Translations under genes and position numbers: made by a program | Notes under the pieces: model-generated | What the model was told of the DNA's origin: nothing | What the model saw: the letters and a program-made list of their open reading frames with translations, nothing else | Database searches by the model: none | Source of the DNA: Escherichia coli | Lineage (GTDB): Bacteria > Pseudomonadota > Gammaproteobacteria > Enterobacterales > Enterobacteriaceae | DNA length: 64,000 nt | Assembly (NCBI RefSeq): GCF_016903815.1 | Contig: NZ_CP069973.1 | Reading direction: 5' to 3' (one strand) | Shown here: one piece after another, positions 38,580-53,210 of the stretch | How positions within the stretch are numbered: the stretch's first letter is position 1 | How the letters are laid out: each line of letters begins with the position of its first letter

Positions 38580-38742
38580 TATTTTCTCTTTTCTGTTAAT
38601 TATTGAGAATAATTATTACTTCACTCAATAAGCTGCGGATATAACATTCTGAACCGCAGCTATTTGTGAATCCTTTCACAGTTTAAATTTCCCCACGCGC
38701 ATAGCCTTAATATCAGCACGCAATATTTATACTCTAAATAAT

Positions 38743-38852
38743 TCAAGTTGCAGGAAGGCGACAAGTGAGTGAGTCCCCAGGAGCTTACATAAGTAAGTGA
38801 CTGGGGTGAGCGAACGCAGACGCAGCACATGCAACTTGAAGTATGACGAGTA
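38743..38852. repeat. ERIC (IRU) element
   Basis: Core gtgagtccccaggagcttacataagtaagtgactggggtgagcgaacgcagacgcagcacatgcaacttgaagtatgacgag. Confidence 0.65.
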
Positions 38853-38897
38853 TATTTAGCGTTCGCCTTAATTACTCATAGCATTAAGGAAGATCAC

Positions 38898-49469: not shown

Positions 49470-51449
49470 TCAGAAGCGATAATCCACTGCCATAAAGTAA
49501 CGACGTCCGTCTTCGTTATAGCTGTAATCGTCACGACTGAGATCCTTGTCGCCAAGGTTCAGCACGCCTGCGCGCAGTTTGACGTCTTTAGTCACCTGCC
49601 AGGCCGCACCGGTATTCCAGATGGTATAACCGCCCGGTGTTTTAGCCGTCGCGCTGTCGGCGCGTTTCTGCCCGGTATAGTGACCAGAAACATAGAATGA
49701 CCAGTCTTCCAGCGCCAGCGGTTTCCAGTCCAGCGTACCGTTAGCGGTATGGAACGGCAGATCGGATAAAGGTTTATTTTCGCCGTTGCTGACATCACGA
49801 CCATCGTTGTAGGTGTAGTTGAGTGACAGTTTCCATTCATCGTTGAACGGAATTTTCAGCTCGGTTTCCACGCCCTGAATACGTGCTTTGTTAACGTTGT
49901 AGTAGCTGAATACCGGCACACCGTTCGCTGTAAAACCAACAAAGTTTTGGTAGCCCGGTGCAGCGTTGACGTCAGACGTACGGCTGATGCTGATACGATC
50001 TTTCACATCGTTACGGAAAACGGTAACGCTGGACTCCACCCCTTCCAGCCAGCCGTCTTCGCCCATGTAGTAAAGCCCCAGTTCCCAACTTTCGCTGGTT
50101 TCTGGTTTCAGATCCGGGCTACCCACAATCTTACATGCGCCACGGCAAGAATTGCTCGTCCAGTCAGGGCTAAGTTGCAACAGAGAAGGTGCTTTAAATG
50201 CCGTCGCCCAGCCCCCTTTTACCGTTACGGTGTCGGTGGCGTTATAAACCAGGTAGGCACGCGGACTCCAGTGTTCACCGTAGGTTTCATGATCGTCCAT
50301 ACGTACGCCGGTCGTCAGCGCCAGCGGCTCGAAGATCCGCCATTCATCTTCCACAAACAGCGCGTACTGGCTGGCAGACGTTTTGGAGCTGGTTCCCCCA
50401 GTCAGGTTCACCGCATCGCTAAGTTTGTCGTGACGCCATTCACCGCCAACCGTGAGAAACTGATTAATCGCCGTCAGCGGCAACGTGTATTTGCCGTCGA
50501 CCGTATTGCTTTCGGAAGTTATCGGGCTGCTGTTGCCAGGGTTTTTGTTCTCGACTTTCTCACCGTAGTATTTCAGTTCGCTGGTGCCGTAATCCCAACG
50601 CCCATTATGGCTGACGGAGTAGTTCTGGCGTTCCAGGCGGTTTTTGTCCAGCGAGTCGGAATCACGATCCTGACGGTCGAAACCGTATCCGGCAGTAAAA
50701 TCGTGATTTTGATTCGGTGTCCAGGCAAATTCGACATTGCCGTCGCGGCTGGAGAATCCTTCAATACGCGGCGTTTCTCCGGTATCGGTGGTCGTTGAGT
50801 TTTGCGGGTCATCCTTTTCACGTTTTGCCAGGCTGCCGTAAGCTTTCATTCCCAGCACACCGTCAATTAATGGTCCGCTGGTAAAGAACTGACCGTTATA
50901 GGTATCACCGCGATCGCGATGTTCCTGAATGGTGGTATCGACGGTAACGGTACCCGACCATTTCTGACCGATTTTTTTGGTGATGATATTCACTACACCG
51001 CCGAGCGCATCGGAACCGTACAGCGACGACATCGGGCCACGGACCACTTCAATACGTTCGATGGAATCGACCGGGATCCAGTTCAGATCGAAATCATTGT
51101 GGCGGAAGACGGCATTGCGGGAGTTAACGCGTTTACCGTCGACGAGAATCAGGGTGTAGCTGCTGTCAAGACCACGAATACTAACGCCCTTACGGTTATC
51201 CCCTTCGTTCGTCAGTTGTACGCCAGGCACTTCTTTGAGGACATCCTTCAGATTCTGTACCGGTTTTCGCTGCAGGTCTTCCTGGGTAATGACGCTGATA
51301 CTGGCGGGTGCATCTTTAAGGTTTTGCTCAACGGAAGATGCAGTGACAACCATCGTTTCGCCATCATCATCGACCGCTAACACAGGCCATGCACAAGAAA
51401 TAGCGGACAAACACAGCCCGACCCGTACGAAAGGGTTCAACCTAAACAT
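49470..51449 (-). CDS. cirA: TonB-dependent catecholate siderophore / colicin I receptor
   Basis: Signal peptide [25 protein letters not shown], TonB box region, terminal aromatic ...VDYRF. Confidence 0.9.
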
Positions 51450-51617
51450 TCCATATCTCCATGAGGTAACTACGAAAATAAAATGGGTATCGCTCACATC
51501 TTCTTTACGTCCCCTTGCGTACGGCAGCATCGCGGTGGACTTATTTGTATGCAGGTGATCATCCCAGAAAGCCGGAACAGCCTCTGATTTGTCAGCCTTT
51601 TTTGATTGCGGCGTAAC

Positions 51618-51645
51618 GATAATGCAAACGATAACAATTATCAAT
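51618..51645 (-). promoter_or_regulatory. Candidate Fur box in the cirA upstream region
   Basis: Minus-strand reading tgataattgttatcgtttgcattatcg resembles the GATAATGATAATCATTATC consensus. Confidence 0.5.
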
Positions 51646-51695
51646 CCAAATGTTAAATTTTATATCCGCATGATTTGTCAGGGAAATGGAATTGA

Positions 51696-51722
51696 AAAAG
51701 CCCTCTCGGTTGAGAGGGCTTA
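51696..51722 (-). terminator. Rho-independent terminator after lysP
   Basis: aagccctctc-ggtt-gagagggctt hairpin, followed by a T-run on the minus strand. Confidence 0.6.
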
Positions 51723-51740
51723 GCAAGGAAGGGAGGAAAC

Positions 51741-53210
51741 TTATTTCTTATCGTTCTGCGGGAACTTCATTTCACTGTAGCGTACGAAGTGAGTTCCTTT
51801 AATCAGCTTGTAGCCGAACCAAATAATCAGGAACAGCGGGATACCAATATACGTTGCCGCTACGCCGCCCCAGTCAATGGTATCTTTAAGGAACGCTTCG
51901 TAGTTCTGGCCCAAAGTGATAATCAGACACAGAATGAATGCGAAGATCGGCCCCAATGGGAAGAAACCTGAACGGTACGGCAGATCGTTAATGTCGTGTC
52001 CCTGCAATACGTAACCGCGACGGAAGCGATAGTGGCTAATGGCAATCCCCAGCCAGGCGATAAAACCGGTCATCCCGGAGGTGTTCAGCAGCCACAGGTA
52101 TACCGTCTGGTTGCCAAACATGGAGGTCAGGAAGCACAGACCGGCAATCACCGTCGTCGCATACAGCGCATTACGCGGCACGCCACCACGCGACAGTTTA
52201 GCGAAAATGCGCGGCGCTTTACCGTCACACGCCAGGGTGTACAGCATACGAGTAGACGCATACATACCGGAGTTACCCGCTGACAGCACCGCCGTCAGAA
52301 TAACTGCGTTCATCACCGCCGCCGCAGAGAGCAGACCCGCGTGCTGGAACACCAGGGTGAACGGACTGACGCTGATGTCTTTAACATCGTTACGCAGCAG
52401 GCTCGGATCGGTGTACGGAATAATCAGGCTGATAATCAGGATCGCGAACACATAGAACAACAGGATTCGCCAGAACACCTGACGTACCGCGCGTGGAATG
52501 TTTTTCGCCGGATCTTCGGACTCGCCTGCAGCAATACCGATCAGCTCGGTTCCCTGGAAAGAGAAGCCGACAATCATAGCTACGCCGATCATCGCCGCAA
52601 AACCACCAGCAAACGGCGCTTCGCCGATTGTCCAGTTGCTCCAGCCCGCAGGCTGCGCGCCTTTGAAGATACCGATAATCATCAGCACGCCAACGATGAT
52701 AAAGACAATAACTGTCGTGACTTTGATCAGTGAGAACCAGTATTCCGCTTCACCAAAGCCGCGAACTGAGATGTAGTTCAGCAGGAAGATAACGCCGAGG
52801 AACAGCGCACTCCAGATCCAGCCCGGTGTATCCGGGAACCACCAGCTCATGACCAGCTGAGCTGCAACCAGGTCAACGGCGATAGTCACCGCCCAGTTGT
52901 ACCAGTAGTTCCAGCCCAGCGCGAAGCCAAAGCCTTCTTCAACATAGTTCTGACCATAAGTGGCAAACGAACCGGAAACCGGCATATATGCAGCCAGTTC
53001 ACCGAGACTGGTCATCAGGAAGTAAACCATCAGGCCAATCAACATATACGAGAGCAATGCCCCGCCCGGACCTGCCTGAGAAATCGTTGCGCCAGAGGCA
53101 ACAAAAAGACCTGTACCGATGGAACCGCCAATGGCAATCATCGTCAGGTGACGCGCCTTTAATTCACGGCGTAAGCCCGGCGCTTCTGTGGTTTTAGTTT
53201 CGGAAACCAT
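51741..53210 (-). CDS. lysP: Lysine-specific permease (APC family)
   Basis: 489 aa, 12 TM. Confidence 0.95.
   Translation of the reverse strand: MVSETKTTEAPGLRRELKARHLTMIAIGGSIGTGLFVASGATISQAGPGGALLSYMLIGLMVYFLMTSLGELAAYMPVSGSFATYGQNYVEEGFGFALGWNYWYNWAVTIAVDLVAAQLVMSWWFPDTPGWIWSALFLGVIFLLNYISVRGFGEAEYWFSLIKVTTVIVFIIVGVLMIIGIFKGAQPAGWSNWTIGEAPFAGGFAAMIGVAMIVGFSFQGTELIGIAAGESEDPAKNIPRAVRQVFWRILLFYVFAILIISLIIPYTDPSLLRNDVKDISVSPFTLVFQHAGLLSAAAVMNAVILTAVLSAGNSGMYASTRMLYTLACDGKAPRIFAKLSRGGVPRNALYATTVIAGLCFLTSMFGNQTVYLWLLNTSGMTGFIAWLGIAISHYRFRRGYVLQGHDINDLPYRSGFFPLGPIFAFILCLIITLGQNYEAFLKDTIDWGGVAATYIGIPLFLIIWFGYKLIKGTHFVRYSEMKFPQNDKK

Follow-up and report, generated by a model that had tools for sequence, protein, structure and literature searches.

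The cirA locus

The window, the whole 64-kb stretch of DNA analysed here, is part of an Escherichia coli chromosome: the 381 nt around the finding recur with 100% identity in many RefSeq E. coli genomes, whose annotation names the flanking genes as cirA and lysP. The identity of these 381 nt to K-12 MG1655 is 99%, as is that of the pairwise alignment from the lysP stop codon into cirA. Both genes are read from the minus strand. The cirA product is the Fe-catecholate and colicin Ia/Ib receptor; according to the list of open reading frames and their translations, its start codon has the A of the ATG at 51449. The lysP reading frame (51741..53210, from the same list and the annotation of the identical DNA) lies upstream. 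A terminator scan finds the lysP intrinsic terminator at 51698..51721 (minus strand), a hairpin, AAGCCCTCTCAACCGAGAGGGCTT, with a 10-bp stem that includes six GC pairs, followed by a T run. This terminator is the upstream boundary of the cirA control region.

The preliminary description of this DNA drew attention to a Fur-like site about 170–195 bp 5' of the cirA start. An exact match to that sequence, the 27-mer tgataattgttatcgtttgcattatcg, occupies 51617..51643 (minus strand). Measured from the ATG, it lies 168–194 nt upstream, which confirms the description. Two sub-elements can be distinguished in this Fur box: the 7-1-7 core element TGATAATtGTTATCG (51629–51643, minus strand), which has two mismatches to TGATAATnATTATCA; and an extra ATTATC hexamer (51618–51623, minus strand).

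Overlapping promoters and the Fur operator

A scan for sigma-70-like promoters returned three sites on both strands, where 1.1 were expected. Two of the three are on the cirA strand, in tandem and 12 nt apart. Promoter p1 (51628..51656, minus strand) comprises a −35 TTAACA (51651–51656), a 17-nt spacer, and an extended −10 TGtTATCGT (hexamer 51628–51633), for a score of 9/12 plus the TG. Promoter p2 (51616..51644, minus strand) comprises a −35 TTGATA (51639–51644), likewise a 17-nt spacer, and a −10 TATCGT (51616–51621), scoring 9/12. Promoter p1 is conserved across genera in a 21-genus alignment. The Fur box overlaps the −10 of p1 together with both the −35 and the −10 of p2, and would also cover the p1 start. 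The box had been called distal, which is true with respect to the start codon but not with respect to the promoter: it sits directly on p1 and p2.

The same two promoters are known from K-12, where the cirA leaders are 173 nt (p1) and 160 nt (p2) long (PMC2588501, after Griggs et al. 1987). With 2 nt fewer in the window than in MG1655, the corresponding leaders here are 171 and 158 nt. Transfer of these cited lengths, with an uncertainty of about 1–2 nt, puts the p1 start at an A at 51620 (−171; −173 in K-12) and the p2 start at an A at 51607 (−158; −160 in K-12), both on the minus strand and each 8–9 nt downstream of its −10 hexamer. The cirA 5' untranslated leader, as placed by these lengths, extends over 51450..51620 (minus strand), 171 nt from p1 and 158 nt from p2.

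Fur binding has been mapped at this site. The DNase I footprint on cir covers NC_000913.2 positions 2244957–2244999 (Griggs & Konisky 1989, as tabulated in Chen et al. 2007, PMC2189734), and Chen et al. place three overlapping Fur walkers here, at 20.7 bits, centred on 2244980 and −189 from the cir start codon (PMC2189734). Carried over through the K-12 locus and the pairwise alignment, the tabulated footprint corresponds to 51613..51655 (minus strand) with an accuracy of about 1–2 nt; the genome-version offset was taken from the table of Chen et al. and the current K-12 annotation, and the 2-nt leader difference was added. In these terms the footprint runs from about −35 to +8 of p1 and from about −48 to −6 of p2, and the whole 27-mer is inside it. 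(The start sites and the footprint, like the Hfq mechanism considered below, come by way of secondary citations.) In vivo, Fur ChIP binding upstream of cirA has been reported; cirA belongs to the core Fur regulon (iModulon); and iron chelation derepresses it. With plentiful iron, Fe2+-Fur on the operator keeps RNA polymerase off p1 and p2, an ordinary promoter occlusion that the literature has demonstrated.

This is the locus described in E. coli K-12 as cir p1/p2 with its Fur operator (Griggs, Tharp & Konisky 1987; Griggs & Konisky 1989). The promoter and Fur region is identical, with the same overlapping promoters and a Fur site centred near −189. Relative to the MG1655 leader there are two 1-nt deletions and one substitution, none of them in the promoter or the Fur box. 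Pairwise alignment locates the first deletion, in which GCATAAAAAAT (K-12) becomes GCATACAAAT (here), in the cirA leader at about 51549–51550; the second, in which GATAACCC (K-12) becomes GATACCC (here), at about 51487–51488, just 3' of the RyhB duplex discussed below; and the substitution (ACGTGAAG versus ACGTAAAG) in the leader at 51507. The effect of the second deletion is probably nil, even beside the RyhB duplex, because many E. coli carry the GATACCC variant. At further E. coli and Escherichia loci, the leaders differ by 1 nt.

Post-transcriptional control of the leader

One explanation offered earlier for the distance between Fur box and start codon was a long 5' untranslated region with post-transcriptional control. 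The positions of p1 and p2 bear this out, as does the documented targeting of the leader by OmrA/B, RyhB with Hfq, and Esr41. Indeed, this is the same cirA leader that was studied by Guillier & Gottesman 2008, Salvail et al. 2013, Wang et al. 2015, and Waters et al. 2017. Compared with the studied sequence, the OmrA/B site (−19..−10), the RyhB site TGTGAGC, and the Shine-Dalgarno (SD) region are unchanged in the window.

The RyhB pairing site, GAUGUGAGCGAU, occupies 51489..51500 (−51..−40, minus strand), where a 12-bp duplex is predicted with the RyhB sequence AUUGCUCACAUU. This site is experimentally anchored, since the mutagenic oligonucleotide of Wang et al. 2015, which turns TGTG into GTAT and is matched by a compensating RyhB mutant, alters the TGTG inside the predicted duplex. 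In the same study, ribosome profiling and compensatory mutations independently confirm that RyhB activates cirA. The site is contained in a block, TGTGAGCAAT, that is conserved at about −53 across the 21 genera. For a broader comparison, 80 loci encoding CirA relatives were gathered from other Enterobacterales, and 76 were analysed: most of the 76 have TGTGAG near −53, and 42 of the 65 loci with a Fur box have three or fewer mismatches to the RyhB-site 12-mer.

Translation initiation signals, recognized from sequence and conservation, lie at 51447..51460 (minus strand): an SD sequence GGAG (51457–51460); a second, SD-like GGAA (51449–51452), pointed out by Guillier & Gottesman (PMC2588501); and the ATG (51447–51449). 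The initiation region carries CTCATGGAG in 72 of the 76 loci. OmrA and OmrB pair with an adjoining and partly overlapping region, 51459..51484 (−35..−10, minus strand), as established by compensatory mutations (PMC2588501); its essential part is UACCUCAUGG (51459–51468, −19..−10, minus strand). The 5' GAGGUA of OmrA/B is complementary to UACCUC at −19..−14, and a block at this site, ACCTCATGGAGA, is invariant across genera. Residues −19..−10 are sufficient, and RNase E-dependent decay results (PMC2588501). Between the RyhB site and the SD sequence is a conserved U-rich block, the AU-rich tract AUUUUAUUUU (51475..51484, minus strand), which from its position is likely the Hfq-bound translational enhancer.

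These elements suggest how the leader would work. According to Salvail et al. 2013, as described in secondary sources, Hfq alone represses cirA translation by binding a translational enhancer, and RyhB pairing remodels the cirA 5' untranslated region, prevents Hfq binding, and opens the SD sequence. Applied to this leader, Hfq alone would occupy the AU-rich enhancer and block translation. Under low iron, RyhB would pair at its site, restructure the leader, and relieve the Hfq block; because RyhB is also Fur-repressed, RyhB and the cirA mRNA are made together in low iron. OmrA/B, by base-pairing over the ribosome-binding site, repress translation and set off decay by RNase E. In EHEC, the sRNA Esr41 also represses cirA directly, as reported with compensatory-mutation support (Waters et al. 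2017).

Pairing energies by themselves do not identify these sites. The RyhB, OmrA, and OmrB sequences were verified against E. coli genomes and Rfam, and seed duplex energies were compared with those of shuffled leaders; the energies were not significant (164/1000 for RyhB, 155/1000 for OmrA). Seed-only duplexes put RyhB at its validated site, and OmrA/B best at a non-validated upstream site. The full-length sRNA–leader duplexes showed unrealistic end-to-end pairing and were discarded. The assignment of sRNA sites rests on published genetics and conservation, because the duplex energies are not significant.

Two other readings of leader sequences were rejected. The TGTGA block resembles a CRP half-site; its position is about 120 nt 3' of the starts, the right half-site is mismatched, and mutations assign the block to RyhB. 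An upstream open reading frame was considered at a conserved block, AAAAGGATGAAG, of other genera; in E. coli and E. albertii this position reads CTG, an SD-like AAGG leaves no spacing before the ATG, and the frames differ in length and sequence.

Together, these features identify the region, with a probability of roughly 0.93, as the native cirA control region: two overlapping promoters, a Fur operator, and a long leader under sRNA and Hfq control.

Comparative anatomy of the leader

Among the 65 loci with a Fur box, the distance from box to ATG ranges from 101 to 222 nt (median 194), which corresponds to leaders of about 78 to 199 nt. Three blocks are conserved in all genera of the 21-genus alignment: the promoter/Fur box; TGTGAGCAAT, with the RyhB site; and ACCTCATGGAGAnnnGGAATG, which holds the OmrA/B site, the SD sequence, and the second SD-like GGAA. 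From the promoter to about −55, the sequence is not conserved and its length is highly variable among genera.

Leader length varies through whole hairpin modules, either SL1 alone or SL1 together with SL2, even within the genus Leclercia. (The loci compared were L012 and L014 from Leclercia, L040–L042 from Atlantibacter, L020–L022 from Enterobacter, and L058 from C. freundii, versus L059, L013, and L027.) Enterobacter soli, Atlantibacter, Citrobacter freundii, and some Leclercia lack SL1; SL2 is absent only from the shortest leaders, and some Leclercia lack it as well. The variable SL1/SL2 region agrees with the published dispensability of −149..−54: deletion of this interval leaves normal expression and retains OmrA/B control (PMC2588501). 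Post-transcriptional control is concentrated in the last ~55 nt of the leader, and the distal ~100 nt, with SL1 and SL2, are variable and largely dispensable for the sRNA and Hfq controls.

Leader hairpins

In the E. coli minimum free energy (MFE) structure, SL1 (51553..51598, minus strand) has a closing helix, AGGcUGA/UCACCU, around a variable inner hairpin. An equivalent is predicted, weakly, in most long-leader species (mean z −1.14, with 11 of 21 below −1). SL1 sits inside the region found dispensable by Guillier & Gottesman (PMC2588501). SL2 (51509..51540, minus strand), a GUCC…GGAC stem-loop directly 5' of the RyhB site, folds at −12.8 kcal/mol with z −1.4 to −1.6. It is GC-rich, and its E. 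coli form has diverged from the hairpin seen in many genera. Neither structure is an intrinsic terminator, since no U-tract follows either hairpin.

Recurrent hairpins in a long leader raise the question of whether the RNA itself is the sensor: a cis-acting riboswitch, attenuator, or thermosensor rather than a platform for trans-acting sRNAs. SL1 and SL2 do recur in many genera, and Guillier & Gottesman suggested further post-transcriptional controls through the leader (PMC2588501). At SL2, an alignment-free comparison of distinct orthologous sequences gives the 42 nt upstream of the RyhB site a mean z of −1.67, with 43 of 62 below −1 and 20 of 62 below −2. Eighteen sequences, registered by hand in one register, share a 5-bp stem and a semi-conserved 7-nt loop, CnAAnGnA, and all five pairs show compensatory changes; these 18 were selected for pairing, which makes the 100% figure circular and leaves the variety of pair types as the only informative part.

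Against direct sensing, a search of 51300–51800 against Rfam at E ≤ 10 returned only sub-threshold matches, the best of which (E 0.054) hits the lysP terminator rather than the leader. Folded as a whole, the E. coli leader is no more stable than shuffled sequences (z = 0.06). RNAalifold on 21 leaders found no consensus structure beyond a trivial 3-bp hairpin, in an alignment whose variable middle is misaligned by indels; the alignment-free z-scores and the hand-registered alignment were used instead. A covariance model of SL2, run against 445 kb, matches only at −91..−60 of cirA loci, recovers mostly its own training sequences plus three more, and misses the diverged E. coli form. Moreover, SL1 can be missing, as can SL2 in some Leclercia, and the −149..−54 deletion has no effect on expression or OmrA/B control. 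A directly sensing leader is thus very improbable, and the region is better read as the native cirA control region with an sRNA-controlled leader.

A narrower question is whether SL2 is an undescribed functional RNA element, which might form a structural part of the RyhB/Hfq switch, act as a barrier to RNase E, or bind another regulator. There is no Rfam family for SL2 and no function for it was found in the literature, where the structure probing of Salvail et al. 2013 possibly covers it. Such a role is rather doubtful, and SL2 is a modest lead. Orthologous SL2 hairpins are found at about 1410–1441 in loci L009, L013, L027, L028, L037, L043, L046, L059, and others. Separately, CCGUACGCAAGGG (51512–51524, −75..−63) is complementary at 12 of 13 positions to CCCUUUCGUACGG in the coding region (51423–51435, +15..+27), and the two are paired in the E. 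coli MFE fold. This pairing is partial in E. albertii and absent in S. arizonae, the two species compared by eye.

A proximal promoter?

The preliminary description also allowed for proximal promoter elements that had escaped detection. In the corresponding model, cirA is transcribed from an additional promoter close to its start codon, and the Fur site acts by looping or as a roadblock, or is irrelevant. Apart from the crudeness of the scan, the sole point in its favour is the ~170–195 nt that separate the Fur site from the ATG. From 51616 to the ATG at 51449, the consensus scan finds no promoter-like −35/−10 pair on the cirA strand, although this is a crude consensus test that a weak or alternative-sigma promoter could escape. 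Genetic evidence points the same way: the Δ2 deletion of −149..−21 does not abolish or lower expression, and instead increases basal expression 1.75-fold (PMC2588501). Among genera, the interval between the Fur box and −55 ranges from near zero to about 120 nt, without a conserved promoter block. Finally, a transcription start mapped near the ATG, with Fur bound elsewhere, is contradicted by the published starts at −173 and −160 and by the footprint, both known through later citation. These observations leave a proximal promoter with next to no credibility, and p1 and p2, under the Fur operator, as the promoters of the native control region.

The Fur box as a sequence match

Scored against the 19-bp Fur consensus GATAATGATAATCATTATC, the cirA site has five mismatches, a score equalled at about nine other places in the window, coding regions included; at three or fewer mismatches, this consensus has no match anywhere in the 64 kb. 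The 7-1-7 core was adopted for scoring because the 19-bp consensus did not single out the cirA site. With two mismatches allowed, the core TGATAATnATTATCA has two sites in the 64 kb on both strands, where dinucleotide shuffles predict 0.14; none of 100 shuffles gave two sites. No better Fur-like site lies nearer the cirA start codon in either the 19-bp or the 7-1-7 scan.

Conservation was assessed in the orthologous loci by a defined criterion: a 7-1-7 match with three or fewer mismatches and a TGATA left arm, within 311 nt upstream. The Fur core TTGATAATnnTTATC is kept 5' of cirA in 65 of the 76 loci, from other Enterobacteriaceae, and ATTGATAA is invariant across the 21-genus alignment. A chance match of AT-rich intergenic DNA without regulatory role, for which the five mismatches to the 19-bp consensus and their recurrence elsewhere in the window might speak, can be dismissed in view of the rarity of the 7-1-7 score, the deep conservation at the cirA promoter across genera, the tabulated Fur footprint on the K-12 site (PMC2189734), and the ChIP and regulon data that include cirA. 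The Fur box is best taken as the operator of the native cirA control region.

Eleven cirA loci have no 7-1-7 match: L046, L048, L051, and L070 (Cedecea and relatives), L053, L062, L065–L068, and L078. Most of these retain the TGTGAGC block, and in most the ribosome-binding-site block is kept too; the Fur operator of these loci may be further upstream or more degenerate. At the positions equivalent to 51655–51664, about 20 nt 5' of the Fur box, most other genera carry a conserved block, TTGACATAA, whereas E. coli and E. albertii have GCGGATATAA. Escherichia and the other genera may differ here in upstream promoter or UP-like elements.

A second Fur-like site near preT

Elsewhere in the window, a 7-1-7 Fur-like match occurs only once: TTAATTATTGAGAATAATTATTAC (38599–38625, core 38604–38618), in the yeiS–preT intergenic region, with the same sequence in MG1655. 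Among the Fur clusters predicted by Chen et al. 2007, it corresponds to the one listed as 'yeiT −163', at 19.6 bits (PMC2189734). In this strain the site is about 287 nt from the preT ATG (38898), a distance due to an insertion, about 124 bp long, that MG1655 lacks.

That insertion, upstream of preT at about 38729–38853, includes the sequence AAGTGAGTGAGTCCCCAGGAGCTTACATAAGTAAGTGACTGGGGTGAGCGAACGCAG and may belong with the ERIC/IRU intergenic repeats, which it resembles. Between the Fur-like site and the insertion is a CRP-like palindrome, TGTGA-N6-TCACA (TGTGAATCCTTTCACA, 38665–38680), with both half-sites perfect. The palindrome is also present in MG1655, with one spacer change.

Related systems and implications

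The arrangement at cirA has parallels. The shiA mRNA is the other one activated by RyhB; translation from its 5' untranslated region is likewise repressed by Hfq and activated by RyhB through pairing in a long leader, although gene, pairing site, and leader are all different. Overlapping Fur hexamers on a promoter followed by a long leader are also found at fepA-fes (−172/−149), fhuF (−93), and sodA (−87); at −189, cir is among the longer Fur-to-start distances, and is not unique (PMC2189734).

The cirA promoter, Fur box, and regulated leader were already known, and the finding is in that respect an ordinary one. It leaves the established picture of cirA unchanged, and the cross-genus comparison makes two modest additions: conservation is confined to the promoter/Fur box and the last ~55 nt of the leader; and gain or loss of hairpin modules produces leaders of about 78 to 199 nt.

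For genome scans, the locus serves as a calibration. A large separation between Fur box and start codon does not by itself point to remote action: the box shows where the promoter is, and the stretch that follows is a regulatory 5' untranslated region. For the biology of E. coli, cirA is a textbook case of layered iron control, with Fur acting on transcription and the Fur-controlled RyhB acting on translation, where it counters Hfq. OmrA/B, and in EHEC also Esr41, oppose this activation by RyhB. Together, these controls set sensitivity to colicins Ia and Ib, microcins, and catechol-conjugated antibiotics.
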